DNA of 64,000 nt from a virus (lineage: Duplodnaviria; Caudoviricetes). Below the pieces are notes generated by a model that searched no databases, was not told where the DNA came from, and saw only the letters and a list, made by a program, of their open reading frames with translations. The position numbers were made by a program, and so were the translations under genes. Positions within the stretch are counted from its first letter, which is position 1. Each line of letters starts with the position of its first letter. Shown in pieces: positions 11,209 to 18,746 of the stretch. Location: IMG/VR virus record IMGVR_UViG_2974674860_000001, positions 26,491 through 90,490 of that record; one strand, written 5' to 3'.

Positions 11209-11409
11209 ATGAAGCACATCCCCCTGCGACCACCCACGCCCGGCGAGGCCATGTCCGCGGCGATCACGCTCATCCGCCTCGCTGAGTACGAGGGCAGCTA
11301 CCAGAACGAGTCTCGCGAGTTCAGCGCGAAATACCTCGGCGAATGGGCTGACAACCGCCGGGCCGAGCTTCGAGACGAGGAGGCCGCCGGTGTCGACAAC
11401 CACGCTTGA
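11209..11409 (+). CDS. hypothetical protein
   Basis: ATG 11209 with GAGG RBS; overlaps the xseA start. Confidence 0.5.
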   Translation: MKHIPLRPPTPGEAMSAAITLIRLAEYEGSYQNESREFSAKYLGEWADNRRAELRDEEAAGVDNHA

Positions 11410-12709
11410 TACCCCGATCCGCGTCAAGGAACTCAACACCAAGATCGGTGCCTGGATCTCCCGCCTCGGCCACATCCATGTCGAAGGCCAGGTCACCCAG
11501 ATCAACCGGCGACCAGGCGCGCACACCGCATTCCTGACGCTCCGCGACCCCCAGGCGGCGGCCTCCGTGTCCGTCACTGCGTCGCCAGGGAAGATCCCGG
11601 CCGAACTCACCGACGGCGACAGCGTCGTCGTCTTCGGCAAGCCATCGTTCTGGCAGGGCCGCGGCAACCTTTCCCTGCGTGCGAGCGAGATCCACCAGGT
11701 CGGCGAGGGTGACCTCCTGCGCCGCATCGCACTCTTCCGCCAATCGCTGGCCGGCGAGGGCGCACTGCGACCCGAGTTGAAGAAGCGCCTGCCGATGCTC
11801 CCACGCCGGATCGGCCTCATCACCGGCGCAGAGTCCGCCGCCGAGCGTGACGTCCTGAGTGTCGCCAAGCAGCGATGGGCCGCCGCCGACTTCTGCGTCA
11901 TCAACACCCCTGTCCAGGGCCCGTCGACGTCCCGCGAGGTTGCCCGAGCGATCAAGGCGCTCGACGACCAGGACGACATCGACGTCATCATCATCGCCCG
12001 CGGCGGTGGCAGCGTCGAAGACCTCCTGCCCTTCTCCAGTGAGCAGATCATCCGCGCAGTGATGATGTGCGAAACCCCGGTCATCTCTGCAATCGGCCAC
12101 GAGCCCGACAATCCGGTGCTCGACGACGTCGCCGACTTCCGTGCAGCCACCCCGACCGACGCCGCGAAGAACGTCGTCCCCGACGCCATGGTCGAGGTCG
12201 CCGGCCTACTCACCGTCGGCGAGTCCCTCGCCTCGGCATTCGCTCGCAACGTCGAGCGCGAGGTCACGGGACTGCATTCCATGGAAGCCCGAGTGAACGG
12301 GCTCGGCGGTCAGATCCTCGCCCGCGAACGATCCACCTTCAACGGCTGGCGCAGTCAGTTCGACCTGACCATGGCCCACTCACTCCAGTCGGAGCGGAAC
12401 TCGCTCCTGTCGTTCTCCAATGCCATCCGCTACGCCAATCCCGGCTCGCGGATCGAGAACGAGTATGTGGCCATCGCAGCCCTTGGAGACCACCTCGAAG
12501 CAGTCTCTCCGAAGGCCGTCATGGAGCGCGGATTCGCGATCGTCACCAACGCACGAACGGGTGACGTGATCACCACTGGCAGTCAGATCTCCGGCGGCAC
12601 AAGCCTGACCATCACCTTCGCCGACGGCAGCACCAGGGACGTCATGGCACTCGCACTGCCCCACTCATCGGTGGGGATCAAACAACCCGAAGGGACCGAA
12701 GCACAGTGA
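11390..12709 (+). CDS. xseA: exodeoxyribonuclease VII large subunit
   Basis: OB fold (HVEGQVTQ...FLTLRD), RRIGLIT, DVIIIARGGGSVEDL, ISAIGHEPD, DFRAATPTDAA. Confidence 0.95.
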   Translation: MSTTTLDTPIRVKELNTKIGAWISRLGHIHVEGQVTQINRRPGAHTAFLTLRDPQAAASVSVTASPGKIPAELTDGDSVVVFGKPSFWQGRGNLSLRASEIHQVGEGDLLRRIALFRQSLAGEGALRPELKKRLPMLPRRIGLITGAESAAERDVLSVAKQRWAAADFCVINTPVQGPSTSREVARAIKALDDQDDIDVIIIARGGGSVEDLLPFSSEQIIRAVMMCETPVISAIGHEPDNPVLDDVADFRAATPTDAAKNVVPDAMVEVAGLLTVGESLASAFARNVEREVTGLHSMEARVNGLGGQILARERSTFNGWRSQFDLTMAHSLQSERNSLLSFSNAIRYANPGSRIENEYVAIAALGDHLEAVSPKAVMERGFAIVTNARTGDVITTGSQISGGTSLTITFADGSTRDVMALALPHSSVGIKQPEGTEAQ

Positions 12710-13573: not shown

Positions 13574-14441
13574 TCAACCCCGAGGACCTCAAGAGCGGCA
13601 CCATCCACGAACTCTCGTCCGCGCTGGCCGACATTGACAGTCTCGCCCAGCTGGCGGTCGAAAGCCTCGACGGCGAGATCGAGCACCTCGCCGAGATCGC
13701 CTACGCCGCGGTGGACGAGCTACAGGATGCAATCCAGGCTCGGCGGTCATGAGCGGCCACGTGAGGAGCGGGAAGGGCCGACCATGCCCCACCCCGAGCA
13801 AGACCGTCTACGGCAGCGGCTACGAGGCAGAGCGGGCCATGTACAAGATGTGGCGGGCCGGACGGGCTCGGCGCGGGAACAAACTCCCGAGCCGAACCTA
13901 CCGATGCCCCTGTGGGAAGTGGCATCTCACGTCCAAGCCGAAGCGCGATCGAGTCCAGGTCAACGAGGGGAACTATGTCCGTCAGTAGAGATCACCTGGT
14001 CGACATGATCGGCTCGACCGCCCCGGGTGAGATGATCGATCTGAACATCGCAATCAGCGGCTGTGACGACACCACTGAGTTCACATTCGCCTGCCACCTC
14101 GGCGCGGCGGTGTGGATCGCCGAGATGGCCGAACGCAGTCAAGCGGAGTCCGAGTACAACTGTCAGCCACGCATCATCGTCAGAAGCGCGAAGCTGCAGT
14201 GACCAGCGACAAGGAGAGGCGACCCCACCAGCCCGTCGTGGCGACCTGGGAGAACCCCTGCTTCCCGCCGGCGGACCGCCCGGTAGAGATCCCCTACATC
14301 TACCGGGCGCCCGACACGGGCTGGCTGGATGACCAGATCGCCGAGCTGCGCCGCCTGATGCCCGACCGAGGTGCGCTCGCCGACGCAGTCAGGGCGGCGA
14401 AGGAGGCCTGGGCGCGTGCCGGTGGATTCACCTCCTTCTGA
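13570..14441 (+). other. four small hypothetical genes (13570-13752, 13749-13988, 13975-14202, 14199-14441)
   Basis: Consecutive overlapping start/stop codons. The second has a CP...YRCPCGKWHLT zinc-ribbon-like motif. Confidence 0.6.
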
Positions 14442-14460
14442 CCCTGCGACGTCGCAGGCC

Positions 14461-14880
14461 GTGAAGCGGTGTGGCCGGTGCAAGATCGACCGACCGGTGA
14501 CCGCGTTCCACAAGAACAGGTCGACCAAGGATGGACTCCAGAAGTCGTGCAAATCGTGCGTCAAGGAGATCAACCGGACGTACTACCTCAGCTCGCCCCA
14601 GAAGAGCGGTGATCGACTCCGTAGCCGCAACAGGGCTAGATGGGCAGCGCGACTCGTCGTGCGTGCATTCAAGGCGTCCCACTCGTGCGTCGACTGCGGA
14701 CTCAGGGATCGGGTCGTCATGGAGTTCGACCATGTCCGCGGTGAAAAGCTCGGCGACCTTTCCAGAATGGCAAATGACGGATTCGGCGTCGAAAAGATTC
14801 TCGCGGAAATAGCGAAATGCGACCTGGTTTGTGCGAATTGCCACCGGCGCAGAACGGCCAGTCGGGCGGGCTGGAGATAG
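14461..14880 (+). CDS. HNH endonuclease
   Basis: CGRC...CKSC zinc finger, then CVDC...EFDHVRG...CANCHRRR. Confidence 0.85.
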   Translation: MKRCGRCKIDRPVTAFHKNRSTKDGLQKSCKSCVKEINRTYYLSSPQKSGDRLRSRNRARWAARLVVRAFKASHSCVDCGLRDRVVMEFDHVRGEKLGDLSRMANDGFGVEKILAEIAKCDLVCANCHRRRTASRAGWR

Positions 14881-15277: not shown

Positions 15278-15293
15278 CCCCCCCGGGCGCCAC

Positions 15294-15326
15294 GAAGGCC
15301 CCCCGTCATTGCGACGGGGGGCCTTC
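15294..15326. terminator. bidirectional hairpin between the rightward operon and the tRNA 3' end
   Basis: GAAGGCCCCCCGTC-ATTGC-GACGGGGGGCCTTC, a 14-bp perfect stem. Confidence 0.8.
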
Positions 15327-15330
15327 TGCG

Positions 15331-15641
15331 TGCCCCCTCGGAGTTTCGATCTCCGCACCCGCGGATTAACTGTCCCACTTCGACTTTCGCCGCCGCAGTG
15401 CTCTGCGTTCGTGGTCTGGACTATCCCTTGACCGTAGGCTCGCGCCCGTAGGTCCGACCCGTCTAGTCTCTACACCTTCCGCCAGGCTGGCTGCCTGGCG
15501 ACTTGGCTCGGGATTGCCAGCTGGCCGGGGCGGGCCAGGGGAGGGTTCCCCGAGTTTGAGTCGTGCCATCCGGTCGGTTTCCCGGCCGGCGCTCCTATTT
15601 GGTTGTGAAGTCCGCTGCTCTTCCGAATGAGCTAAGGGGGC
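15331..15641 (-). tRNA. tRNA-Lys(UUU) interrupted by a group I intron (exon 1 15641-15608, exon 2 15369-15331)
   Basis: Exon 1 GCCCCCT-TA-GCTC-ATTCGGAA-GAGC-A-GCGGA-CTT. Exon 2 TTAA-TCCGC-GGGTG-CGGAG-ATCGAAA-CTCCG-AGGGGGC-A. Joined, they give a 73-nt cloverleaf with loop CU-UUU-AA, a perfect 7-bp acceptor stem and A73. CCA is not encoded. Confidence 0.9.
15370..15607 (-). ncRNA. group I self-splicing intron, 238 nt, IC3/Azoarcus-like, no endonuclease ORF
   Basis: Conserved elements P (AAACTCGGGGAA), Q (GGCAATCCCGAGCCAAG), R (GAAGGTGTAGAGACTAGACGG) and S (AAGGGATAGTCCAG). P7 GACTA/TAGTC, P3 CGACTC/GGGTCG, P2 and P9 GAAA tetraloops, P5 CTGGCC/GGCCAG, P6a CGCCAGGC/GCCTGGCG. Terminal G at 15370; P1 exon CUU pairs with IGS GAG via U.G. 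Confidence 0.92.
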
Positions 15642-15648
15642 GGGTCAG

Positions 15649-15657
15649 AGACTAGCA
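15649..15657 (-). promoter_or_regulatory. extended -10 promoter for the tRNA
   Basis: TGc-TAGTCT ends 7 nt before tRNA G1. Confidence 0.45.
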
Positions 15658-15727
15658 GGTGGGCGGCGGTGCGACCCAGCCGCGGCCCTCCTGCTCTAGC
15701 CCTCAGTTCACGCACACCCACTTCGCG

Positions 15728-15925
15728 TATGCGGACTGTAAACGGACTCGGTTTCCGAAACCTGCGCTGAGCTGGGGTTTTATGGGGTGGCTCTGCGGAT
15801 TAAAAGTCCGTAGAATGGACCATGCACACGCTGCATCTTTGAGTCAAATGCGCAGGTCAGAGGCCATCATGTAGACTCAAGGTAGTCCAAGATCCCCCTT
15901 GGATAAACGGACAGATAAACGGACT
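15728..15925. mobile_element. attP: attP: core about 15793-15813 flanked by arm-type sites
   Basis: The core on the minus strand reads CTACGGACTTTTAATCCGCAG (tRNA-Lys(UUU) anticodon arm). Direct repeats TATGCGGACT 15728, TAAACGGACT 15739, TAAACGGACA 15904 and TAAACGGACT 15916 flank it. It lies just upstream of the integrase. Confidence 0.85.
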
Positions 15926-16207
15926 CGACGGACGGAGCCCCGCGATGCAGGTTCAGACCCACCTCAACCCCTCCACTCGTCGATGCCGGGCGACGGCGCT
16001 CGCCGCCGACCGCGAGCCTGTGCTCGCTGGTGCCGATCGGCCCGACCTTCCGTCCTGGATTGCGCAGCCGGCGATTGTGCGTCAATGCGGAGGGCCCGCT
16101 GGACACTCGGGGGATCACGAATCTCACTGGAATGGGAAGCCGTTTCTCTGGCCCAATTCGAGCTACTGATTCCACTCACCTCAAGATTGCATTCAGGAGA
16201 CTTAACA

Positions 16208-17566
16208 ATGGATGAAACGGGCACACGAGCGAAGCGCGGCAGCGGCGGTATTCGATACCGGGCCGACAAGGACATCTGGATCGCCAGTGAAACCGTCACG
16301 CTCAACGGGAAGAGGACGCGACTCGAAGCCACGGGCAAGACCGAGACGAAGGCCCGCGCTGCCATCGCGAAGAAGCGCAACGAGTTCATCCGCGGGAAGA
16401 AGAAGAAGGCGAGCCGAGGAACCGTCACGGAGTGGCTGAACAAGTTCACCGACGAGATCGCGATCCATGACATCCGGCCGGGCACGATGCGCTCGTACAA
16501 GAGCGTCATCAACAACCACATCATTCCGACGATCGGAGACAAGAAGCTGGCCACCCTGGAGCCCGCCGACGTGCGCACGATGCGCGACGAGATCATGCGT
16601 CGCTGTGAGGCCGCGGACAAGGCGGGAACATCCAAGCGCAAGGGTGCCGGGCCGAGCCGCGCTCGATACGCACAGACGGTCCTGTCGGTTGCGCTCGCGA
16701 GAGCCGTCCAGGATGAAGTGATTGATCGCAACGTGGCGAACAAGGAGTACGTGAAGAAGCTGCCCGCTCCCGACAAGGCAGTGGCCGCGCTCGATGCCGA
16801 TCAGGCGAAGCGGTTCCTGCGCGATGTAGCCCGCAGCGAGGGCACCAACGCATCGCGGTGGGCGTTCGCGTTCCTGACGGGCGCACGGCAGGGCGAGATC
16901 CTCGGACTGGAGATCAACCGGCTCGACTTCACCTTCGACTCGTTGAAGCTCACCAAGCAGCTCCAGATCCTGCCGAACCGCCACGGCTGTGGTGAGCAGA
17001 ATGAAGACGGGACATGGCCGTGCGGGAAGACCGCTCCCCGTGCGTGCAAAGACCGTGAGTTCGACATCTCGCCGACGTACGCCGAGCAGGTGAAGGTGCT
17101 CCACGGAAGCCTCGCCCTGGTCCCCACCAAGACGAAGATGTCGAAGCGCGACCTGCCGATGGTGGGGCCGTTGAAGAAGATCCTCCAGGCGCACCTGGAG
17201 GCCACGGCGCATATGCCCAACCCGCACGGCCTGGTGTGGCGAAACGAGGACGGTTCGCCGCTGCAGCCGCGCAGTGACTTCGATACGTGGTCGGACGCTC
17301 TGACGAAGAGCGGCTTTGATCACATCAAGCTGCACTCGTCGAGGTCGAGCACGGCCAGCATCATGAGCGACATGGGAATCGATCGCGAGGTGATCGCGGA
17401 GATCCTTGGACATACCAATCTGGAGACCACGGCTGGCTACGTTGCGGTGGGTGACAAGTTCCGGCGGGATGCGCTCGGAAAGGTCGGCGGTGCGCTGATG
17501 CTGGAGCTGTTCGGAGATGACGATGGTGACGACAACGCCCCGACGACAGAAGCCATCGGGGCGTGA
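16208..17566 (+). CDS. int: tyrosine integrase
   Basis: N-terminal arm-binding domain (RGSGGIRYR). Catalytic R (GARQGE), HSSR, LGH and TAGY. ATG 16208 with AGGAG RBS. Confidence 0.95.
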   Translation: MDETGTRAKRGSGGIRYRADKDIWIASETVTLNGKRTRLEATGKTETKARAAIAKKRNEFIRGKKKKASRGTVTEWLNKFTDEIAIHDIRPGTMRSYKSVINNHIIPTIGDKKLATLEPADVRTMRDEIMRRCEAADKAGTSKRKGAGPSRARYAQTVLSVALARAVQDEVIDRNVANKEYVKKLPAPDKAVAALDADQAKRFLRDVARSEGTNASRWAFAFLTGARQGEILGLEINRLDFTFDSLKLTKQLQILPNRHGCGEQNEDGTWPCGKTAPRACKDREFDISPTYAEQVKVLHGSLALVPTKTKMSKRDLPMVGPLKKILQAHLEATAHMPNPHGLVWRNEDGSPLQPRSDFDTWSDALTKSGFDHIKLHSSRSSTASIMSDMGIDREVIAEILGHTNLETTAGYVAVGDKFRRDALGKVGGALMLELFGDDDGDDNAPTTEAIGA

Positions 17567-17589: not shown

Positions 17590-18363
17590 CTACGGGAACT
17601 CGGCGAGGTGTCGCTGCCGGCGCGGGCATTCCCCCGAGGTCTCGCGGAGTGCGACGGTCATCGCGAGCCCGGCAATGATCGAGGAGGCGAACACTACCGA
17701 GGTGATGCTGAGTGTGTTGAAGAAGGTCTCGGCCGGTACCGAGTTGTTGAACACGAAGCCAAGCGTGACAACCTGGCTGCCCCAGGCGAAGGCTGCGCCG
17801 GCGCCGAAGAGGTAGACGGCGATGATGTGCTTCTCCACGAAGCTCTGGGCGCGAACAACAATCGATGCGTATCCGAAGCACATGCCAGTAATGATGGCCA
17901 GCATGCCGAGCAGGATTGTGTAGGCGTTCATCCAGACGCCCTCGAAGCCCTTGAACTGCACGCCGTCGGGGAACTGGGTCGAGTCGGCGTAGGGGGAGCG
18001 GATGTAGGAGAGGATCATCCCGCCGGCGACAAGGACGCAACAGAGGATGACGGCCAGATGCAGGTCTGGTCGCCCGAGCGAATGGACGACGTGAAGCAGG
18101 AGGAGGGCGCACAGTATGACCGAGAGCATGTCGCTGAGAAGCTCACCAGTATTCGCCGCGCCGACCAGGTCGTAGACAGGCCTGCCGATCAGTGGGTCCT
18201 GAATCCTCGGGGTTTTGGCAACAAGGGCGACCGCAAGAACGCCGGACGCCGCCGTCATGTATCGAGAGCTTGGGTCGATACGCCAGTACAGGACCACGCG
18301 GATCAAAAAGATGGTGGCGAGCAGCAGGGCTGCTACTCCAAGGACGATGGTTGGGTGGTGCAT
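17590..18363 (-). CDS. polytopic membrane protein (about 7 TM)
   Basis: Alternating hydrophobic segments; TGATG-coupled to the upstream HTH gene. Confidence 0.75.
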   Translation of the reverse strand: MHHPTIVLGVAALLLATIFLIRVVLYWRIDPSSRYMTAASGVLAVALVAKTPRIQDPLIGRPVYDLVGAANTGELLSDMLSVILCALLLLHVVHSLGRPDLHLAVILCCVLVAGGMILSYIRSPYADSTQFPDGVQFKGFEGVWMNAYTILLGMLAIITGMCFGYASIVVRAQSFVEKHIIAVYLFGAGAAFAWGSQVVTLGFVFNNSVPAETFFNTLSITSVVFASSIIAGLAMTVALRETSGECPRRQRHLAEFP

Positions 18364-18746
18364 CAGCTCAAGAAACCTCTTCCCCGACGCCGCGGTTTGG
18401 TGGTGCGTACGCCGGCGTGCTCACCGCGGGCAAGAGCACGCGACGCCAGCTCGTCGAGCAGCTCTATCTCGGGGATAGCTGCCAATGGTTGTATCGCCGA
18501 ACCCGCGACTTTCGCTACATCGGCGAGGTCAAGATGCCCGAGTTCTACAAGCATCTGGGACCGCGACACCTGGAAGAAGTCGCACATCTGCATGACCTCT
18601 TCGAGTCGGAATCCCTCGTTGCCCGACATGCGTCGCGAGATCGTCGACACGTGGACGTTGAGGGCTTCGGCGATCTCGGACCGAGTGACATCTCGGCCGA
18701 GCATTTTGCCGAAGATCGCAATCGACTGCACTGTATCTCCGTTCAT
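18363..18746 (-). CDS. HTH DNA-binding protein (repressor-like)
   Basis: TRSEIAEALNVHVSTISRR HTH; lies next to the integrase. Confidence 0.75.
   Translation of the reverse strand: MNGDTVQSIAIFGKMLGRDVTRSEIAEALNVHVSTISRRMSGNEGFRLEEVMQMCDFFQVSRSQMLVELGHLDLADVAKVAGSAIQPLAAIPEIELLDELASRALARGEHAGVRTTKPRRRGRGFLS

Follow-up and report, generated by a model that had tools for sequence, protein, structure and literature searches.

In tRNA-dependent lysogeny, the core shared by the phage attachment site (attP) and the bacterial attachment site (attB) is short (8 to 17 bp), the host tRNA is not rebuilt upon integration, and a phage tRNA of the same isotype is needed for viable lysogens (PMC10865867). 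This tRNA requirement was proven experimentally for Fionnbharth and for cluster L phages, and it was predicted for BrutonGaster, OneUp, and Mollymur on Gordonia terrae (PMC10865867). The same study placed the attB sites of BrutonGaster and Daredevil in the G. terrae tRNA-Lys-TTT gene, described Daredevil (cluster DL) as a phage that integrates there, lacks a tRNA gene of its own, and gives clear plaques "as predicted," and raised PrrC-type nucleases as a possible selective force (PMC10865867). Here we compare with these systems an integration module in a 64,000-nucleotide (nt) stretch of viral DNA, referred to below as the window, which is the final 64 kb of the 90,490-bp IMG/VR virus record IMGVR_UViG_2974674860_000001. 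The element in question is a tRNA-Lys(UUU) gene that is split by a group I intron and lies next to attP and the integrase gene.

tRNA-dependent lysogeny is already published (Guerrero-Bustamante & Hatfull, mBio 2024); the novelty of the present case lies in the intron that interrupts the rescue tRNA. Our preferred reading, to which we assign a probability of about 0.6, is that the window carries a tRNA-dependent lysogeny module whose rescue tRNA came as a cassette with an ordinary selfish group I intron, that tRNA function depends on splicing, and that the splitting of a 16-mer shared by the tRNA and the attP core is a by-product.

Results

With introns allowed, ARAGORN reported a single tRNA in the whole 90,490-bp record. 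This tRNA-Lys(ttt) gene, located at c[41820,42131] of the genome, corresponds to positions 15330 to 15641 of the window on the minus strand and contains a 238-nt intron at tRNA position 35, i.e., after U34. Default ARAGORN reported no tRNA in the window because the intron splits the gene. The 5' exon (15608 to 15641, minus strand) comprises the acceptor strand, the D arm, the 5' anticodon stem, and C32 to U34, and it ends with ...GCGGACTT. The 3' exon (15330 to 15369, minus strand) starts with TTAATCCGC and comprises U35 to A38, the 3' anticodon stem, the variable loop, the T arm, the acceptor strand, and the discriminator A. Joined, the exons give a normal 74-nt tRNA-Lys(UUU) cloverleaf with the anticodon arm GCGGA-CTTTTAA-TCCGC. 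The 3' exon is 87.5% identical to the Fionnbharth-type tRNA-Lys, and 64 of the 74 positions of the spliced tRNA would agree with the experimentally validated rescue tRNA of Fionnbharth, those of the unusual T arm CGGAG-ATCGAAA-CTCCG among them. Judged by these similarities, the exons look functional.

The exon-exon junction reads CGGACTT/TTAATCCGC (the slash marks the splice site). A search allowing up to 2 mismatches (chance expectation, 0.04 hits) located the 16-mer CGGACTTTTAATCCGC once in the window and in the full record, at positions 15795 to 15810 of the minus strand. The DNA of the tRNA gene has no copy of this 16-mer, and the longest match between the gene and attP is an unrelated 9-mer. 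The original prediction had claimed that the intron splits a 16-mer, which is thereby absent from the tRNA DNA and restored by splicing, and that this 16-mer is the recombination core of attP. The exact junction and the search confirmed the first claim; in line with the second, the copy at 15795 to 15810 has arm repeats on both sides and an adjacent tyrosine integrase gene. Furthermore, the span 15331 to 15813, which had been singled out, indeed covers the tRNA and the core. The phage tRNA lies 153 nt downstream of the core and has the same isotype and orientation.

The attP core CTACGGACTTTTAATCCGC (15795 to 15813, minus strand) is a perfect Lys(UUU) anticodon arm, its 16-mer being the spliced arm of the phage tRNA. 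The CTA extension of the core matches the LeBron core and therefore probably the host tRNA too; the G. terrae tRNA-Lys sequence used here was deduced from the BrutonGaster and LeBron attP cores and from the core lengths given in PMC10865867. The flanks of the 16- to 19-nt core carry no D-arm, T-arm, or acceptor sequence. Integration therefore cannot rebuild the host tRNA gene, the core being too short for this. As in the lambda-type attP sites used for tRNA-dependent lysogeny, the core is surrounded by arm repeats and served by a tyrosine integrase. One GTCCGTTTA-type arm repeat (P' arm; 15737 to 15750, minus strand) lies on the tRNA side of the core, and two tandem GTCCGTTTA-type repeats (P arm; 15902 to 15927, minus strand) lie on the integrase side; they belong to the direct repeat families D1 and D3. 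The relatives have different but equivalent repeats in the place of the P' arm. The integrase gene (16208 to 17566, plus strand) encodes a protein of 452 amino acids with the domains PF00589 and PF14659 (Pfam). Its closest relatives (51 to 54% identity) are the integrases of the Gordonia terrae phages Bantam, SpeedDemon, BrutonGaster, Mollymur, DatBoi, and OneUp. Scans of bacterial genome contigs with the single protein and with an alignment yielded no relatives of the window integrase, nor any natural lysogen junctions.

To place this attP among related ones, we built an alignment of the intergenic sequences between the tRNA and int from seven phages (alignment A1). All seven share one layout, in which a short core resembling an anticodon loop and a conserved block are enclosed on both sides by phage-specific direct repeats. 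The core is of the Lys type (CTTTTAA) in the window and in BrutonGaster and of the CAT type (CTCATAA) in the other five. Each of the seven phages has a complete tRNA of the matching isotype 141 to 178 nt from the core in the same orientation. This pairing of isotypes (Lys with Lys, CAT with CAT), distance, and orientation argues against the possibility that the tRNA serves chiefly in lytic growth or counter-defense, e.g., by replacing tRNA-Lys cut by anticodon nucleases, and lies close to attP only incidentally. So does the lysogeny requirement shown experimentally for Fionnbharth and cluster L (PMC10865867). Such a role would be in line with the frequent occurrence of tRNA-Lys genes in lytic phages, with the naming of PrrC-type nucleases as a possible selective force (PMC10865867), and with a precursor lacking the normal anticodon loop; overall, we consider it highly improbable. 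As a side observation, the tRNA-Lys(UUU) of BrutonGaster, on which PMC10865867 relied, is unannotated in RefSeq NC_048169.1 (L005:1103-1176). In a search with a Mycobacterium smegmatis tRNA 3' half, the attP sites of canonical phages were not among the matches listed.

The intron occupies positions 15370 to 15607 of the minus strand. Its assignment as a 238-nt group I intron of the IC3 tRNA-intron type is based on an alignment of homologues, a partial match to RF00028, and blastn matches to intron-split tRNAs; a group I intron annotated within the psbA gene of a cyanophage is similar to it as well. The motif GTAGAGACTAGACGG is present in the window intron. The core 15-mer of the intron is present in at least 119 viral contigs, and 79 of its 121 contexts in viral contigs are inside intron-split tRNA genes (65 Leu[UAA], 7 Met, and otherwise single cases). 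For 74 of these 79 genes, no copy of the spliced junction was found in the fetched locus.

We aligned 61 homologous tRNA introns with the window intron, defined the helices on the window sequence, and then tested them across the family. Helices P2 to P9 are present in the window intron. Across the 61 introns, P3, P4, P6, P7, P8, P9, and P9b are 98 to 100% canonical, and all of them are formed in the window intron. Many compensatory changes were detected in P3, P8, and P9b, while P7 is invariant. The P7 strands of the window intron are GACTA/TAGTC, and the intron ends with ...GACAG, its terminal base being G. Near its 5' end, the guide UAGGAG pairs with CUU/UUA; U34 thereby forms a U.G pair at the 5' splice site (P1), and the 3' exon is paired through its first three bases (P10). 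The same guide recurs in other Lys introns, namely in two Lys-CUU genes (L028 and L244) and, with the insertion site identical, in two Lys-UUU genes (L125 and L225). We conclude that, by its sequence, the intron is an intact IC3-type tRNA group I intron. This agrees with the original prediction, which had proposed a ribozyme that has to splice before the tRNA can act: the ribozyme is structurally intact, and rescue of the kind described in PMC10865867 would need splicing.

Mapping of the reads and contigs of two public sequencing runs onto the window, together with a blastn comparison between the window and a sister contig (L280; Logan SRR8946420; 56,365 bp), revealed a swappable tRNA cassette (15338 to 15684, minus strand). 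The cassette has 347 bp in the window and 116 bp in sister phages, where it carries an intronless tRNA-Lys(UUU). In run X1 the joint was at 15337/15685, and the loose ends in run X2 matched the same 116-bp cassette; from run X3, no reads mapped to the window. The exchange points of the cassette are the final 8 nt of the tRNA and a position 44 nt upstream of the tRNA. In L280, the integrase protein, the attP core, and the arm repeats are identical to those of the window, and the flanks have approximately 98% nucleotide identity. The slot corresponding to 15338 to 15684 of the window contains an intronless tRNA-Lys(UUU) similar to those of the host and LeBron (L280:3354-3427). Since this tRNA stands behind an identical integrase and core, the intron is dispensable for this integrase/attP pair. 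The anticodon arm of the L280 tRNA (CCCGA-CTTTTAA-TCGGA) shares 11 nt with the core, compared to 16 nt for the spliced arm of the window.

The two alleles bear on the claim that the intron hides the core. According to this explanation, the intron is kept because it breaks an attB-like site: an intronless anticodon arm identical to that of the host, located in direct orientation 153 nt from attP, would be recombined by the integrase, with deletion of part of attP and the tRNA. With the intron, the site would be gone from the DNA and restored in the RNA alone, the host-identical arm would be kept, and lysogen survival would be tied to ribozyme activity. We regard this explanation, taken as a whole, as unlikely. 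In its favor, the longest exact match to the own attP is only 7 to 11 nt in nine intronless rescue tRNAs, while the intron-split gene alone would reach 16 nt. Only single flipped stem pairs separate the two intronless Gordonia Lys genes from the core (pair 31:39 for BrutonGaster, pair 29:41 for L280), and the stems of LeBron and Fionnbharth are wholly different from the core, although the first 26 nt of the LeBron tRNA equal those of L280. Against masking, the intron is absent from the sister phage, whose integrase and core are the same, and the 9 to 11 nt that intronless relatives share with their own cores reach the length of several functional attP/attB cores in the literature (8 to 11 bp; PMC10865867). 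Furthermore, the 5' exon-intron junction retains CGGACTT, including CTT, the sole element conserved among the secondary sites of Fionnbharth (PMC10865867) and apparently the one most required by its integrase, a relative of that of the window. The sample is small and phylogenetically nonindependent, and the stem divergence could also reflect different tRNA origins or evasion of tRNA-cleaving toxins. Thus, of the claim that the intron hides the core, the avoidance of full core identity by intronless rescue tRNAs stands in support, but the intronless sister, the generic intron position, and the retained CGGACTT speak against it.

Additional integrase-linked Lys tRNAs add evidence on both sides. 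In L028:6025-7784 (IMGVR_UViG_3300022744_000027) and L244:822-2578, an intron-split tRNA-Lys(CUU) is located approximately 110 nt downstream of a short Lys-type core (..GACACTCTTAAACAC..). This core is flanked by the repeats GGGCGCTA[AG]TAGGGCGC and adjoins a P4-like tyrosine integrase gene; the G+C content is approximately 60 to 62%. Like the window, these loci combine a homologous intron with the same UAGGAG guide, a core of the same isotype, arm repeats, and a tyrosine integrase. They differ from it in the anticodon (CUU), in the distantly related P4-like integrase of the Arm-DNA-bind_3 type, and in the spliced tRNA, which would share 8 nt with the core. Judged by this arrangement, they probably represent another tRNA-dependent lysogeny module with an intron-bearing tRNA. 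The combination of an intron-split tRNA-Lys(CUU) and a short Lys-type core in a second integrase module, unrelated to that of the window, is in line with masking, whereas a spliced tRNA-to-core match of only 8 nt in L028 is not. A second ACTCTTAA in the G001 record, considered as a prophage end, was attributed to chance, being an 8-mer.

The anticodon loop is the universal site of this intron family, and Lys introns also occur where no integrase was detected, which weakens the case for masking further. Lys introns with the UAGGAG guide are present in multi-tRNA arrays or regions in L125, L225, and L215; no integrase was detected in these three loci or in the complete L125 record. The original prediction would lose its basis if such introns were equally common away from attachment sites, and the homologous Lys introns in arrays without a detected integrase come close to this. 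ARAGORN mis-phased the Lys(UUU) introns as "tRNA-Stop(tta)" (L125:9956-10227, L225:10133-10436, and L215:7075-8054). L215 contains two intron-split tRNAs (Lys-CUU and Leu-CAA) within one array of 10 tRNAs. A different arrangement was observed in L144:723-1874 (IMGVR_UViG_3300044608_001275), where an intronless Fionnbharth-type tRNA-Lys(UUU), with an anticodon arm identical to the spliced arm of the window, begins 16 nt past the stop codon of a 354-amino-acid integrase. The 44-kb record contains no other Lys-type core, and the L144 tRNA may itself be the attP.

The structural region of the window is approximately 78% identical to that of cluster DL phages. Every other DL member was found in the database searches, but no search returned a record near-identical to the window. 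Because the phage is DL-like, has a Lys-type core, has no tRNA according to default tools, and lacks a near-identical database record, we infer that it is probably Daredevil or a near-identical phage. Daredevil is absent from the supplement of PMC10865867. If the identification is correct, the Daredevil tRNA was overlooked because of the intron.

This identification also bears on a further explanation, that the intron cassette is a poor or failed rescue gene and that, following a swap of cassettes or an invasion by the intron, the phage became largely incapable of forming viable lysogens and behaves as a lytic, clear-plaque member of a temperate lineage. The plaques of Daredevil, a DL phage with its attB in tRNA-Lys-TTT, are clear, which is what a phage lacking a working tRNA should produce (PMC10865867), and the window fits Daredevil in its DL-level similarity, Lys core, lack of a tRNA by default tools, and absence from the database matches. 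The immunity repressor gene (18363 to 18746, minus strand) is full length; its product is 55 to 56% identical over the entire length to the Mollymur, SpeedDemon, and DatBoi repressors and belongs to a transcriptional repressor PHROG. Since the repressor and the integrase are apparently intact, a tRNA defect is a reasonable cause of clear plaques. Moreover, two sister isolates bear the intronless cassette. These observations are countered by the intact conserved helices, guide, and terminal G of the intron and by the resemblance of the exons to a proven functional tRNA. In addition, IC3 introns normally splice efficiently, and the link to Daredevil is itself indirect. A failed or conditional rescue gene appears quite improbable to us.

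Several other features surround the module. On the integrase side of the core, the conserved block TGACCTGCGC-ATTTGAC...GCAGCGTRTGCAT (15815 to 15870, minus strand; columns ~385 to 430 of alignment A1) is kept in all seven related attP regions though the arm repeats differ. It may act as a promoter that reads toward the core and tRNA, or an accessory protein may bind there. A scan for the sigma-70 consensus between the core and the tRNA detected no promoter, and by eye only weak TANNNT hexamers were seen upstream of each cassette. Directly 3' of the tRNA is a G+C-rich hairpin (15285 to 15335; inverted repeat I1) with a terminator-like partial Rfam match, which is likely a bidirectional terminator. 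Between attP and the integrase gene, an open reading frame (ORF) of 77 amino acids (15946 to 16178, plus strand) occupies the slot in which an excise gene is annotated in DatBoi; it has no Pfam or PHROG match. An ORF for an HNH endonuclease (14371 to 14880, plus strand), approximately 450 nt from the intron-split tRNA, is a candidate free-standing homing endonuclease gene; in SpeedDemon, likewise, an HNH gene adjoins the tRNA. The large subunit of exonuclease VII is encoded at 11390 to 12709 (plus strand) and is 46 to 47% identical to Gordonia and Corynebacterium XseA. According to the L280 gene table, the next ORF encodes the small subunit. SpeedDemon and Mollymur share these exonuclease VII genes with the window phage.

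Discussion

We propose the following mechanism for the phage, which would be a cluster DL-type phage of Gordonia terrae. The integrase would recombine attP, with its arm repeats and core of approximately 16 to 19 bp, with the anticodon arm of the host tRNA-Lys(UUU) gene, which would be split and not rebuilt. After integration, judging from the geometry of the locus, the phage tRNA-Lys(UUU) gene would be located just downstream of the truncated host gene, at the left attachment junction (attL). A functional tRNA would arise only through self-splicing of the 238-nt intron. The intron would be a selfish element that arrived with a swappable tRNA cassette, and it need not have evolved as a mask. 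The 16-mer would be split because the intron family and the integrase family both target the anticodon loop.

Five points weigh against this proposal. First, the alignment of the intron to RF00028 is partial and scores 15.4 bits, compared to a gathering threshold of 50. At the gathering threshold, Rfam detected nothing in the window, and RF00028 also gave nothing in the own-genome search; according to Williams 2020 (bioRxiv 10.1101/2020.01.27.920355), the Rfam seeds for RF00028 do not include bacterial sequences, and the model misses many tRNA introns. Second, splicing and tRNA function are predicted from sequence, and no RNA runs covering the region were among the public sequencing runs listed. 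Third, the host attB and the copy number of the host tRNA-Lys(UUU) gene are taken from PMC10865867 and deduction. Fourth, if the window is Daredevil, the clear plaques suggest that the tRNA fails to rescue lysogens under laboratory conditions, the repressor looking intact. Fifth, the intronless rescue tRNAs consistently lack full identity to the core, which hints that the splitting of the 16-mer may matter.

The fourth point also affects the suggestion that the ribozyme has been domesticated, as made in the original prediction. Of this suggestion, the likely dependence on splicing remains. However, the intron is dispensable in the sister phage, and the clear plaques of the probable Daredevil argue against a smoothly working device. 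Similarly, we view as doubtful the broader idea that group I introns in replacement tRNAs are a selected means by which tRNA-splitting phages and islands keep the integrase off the replacement gene. If masking were true, splicing conditions would decide between lysis and lysogeny, and the clear plaques of Daredevil could reflect conditional lysogeny.

The preferred reading, a selfish intron that arrived with the rescue tRNA cassette, has consequences for published work. Daredevil, cited as the natural case of a tRNA-less phage with clear plaques, probably carries a cognate tRNA hidden by an intron, and its published tRNA annotation would probably have to be corrected. If so, this control is affected, and the clear-plaque phenotype needs another explanation. 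More generally, intron-split genes escape surveys for tRNA-dependent lysogeny and the annotation of phage tRNAs. The possible usefulness of group I introns in bacterial tRNAs, as opposed to pure selfishness, is a long-open question, and two natural alleles behind the same integrase and attP provide a testable case. Assays for phage engineering and with integration plasmids already exist for Gordonia terrae 3612.

In comparison to the described cases of tRNA-dependent lysogeny (Fionnbharth/K4, cluster L, Cain, and Gaia; BrutonGaster, OneUp, and Mollymur), the attP layout of the window aligns with the Gordonia examples. Unlike in the published cases, a group I intron interrupts the rescue tRNA gene and conceals it from default tRNA finders. 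Furthermore, the core matches 16 nt of the spliced anticodon arm in the window but 7 to 11 nt in the intronless cases.

The intron resembles the IC3 introns of bacterial tRNAs, such as those of cyanobacterial tRNA-Leu(UAA), Azoarcus tRNA-Ile(CAU), and Agrobacterium tRNA-Arg(CCU), in its location in the anticodon loop, in the U preceding the 5' splice site, and in its terminal G. It also shares with them a conserved P3 to P9 core with GTAGAGACTAGACGG, a length of approximately 200 to 250 nt, and the lack of an ORF. The text of the intron catalogue of Williams 2020 (bioRxiv 10.1101/2020.01.27.920355) does not mention Lys. In contrast to the catalogued IC3 introns, the window intron resides in a phage tRNA-Lys(UUU), after position 3 of the loop (CUU/UUAA), and within an integration module.

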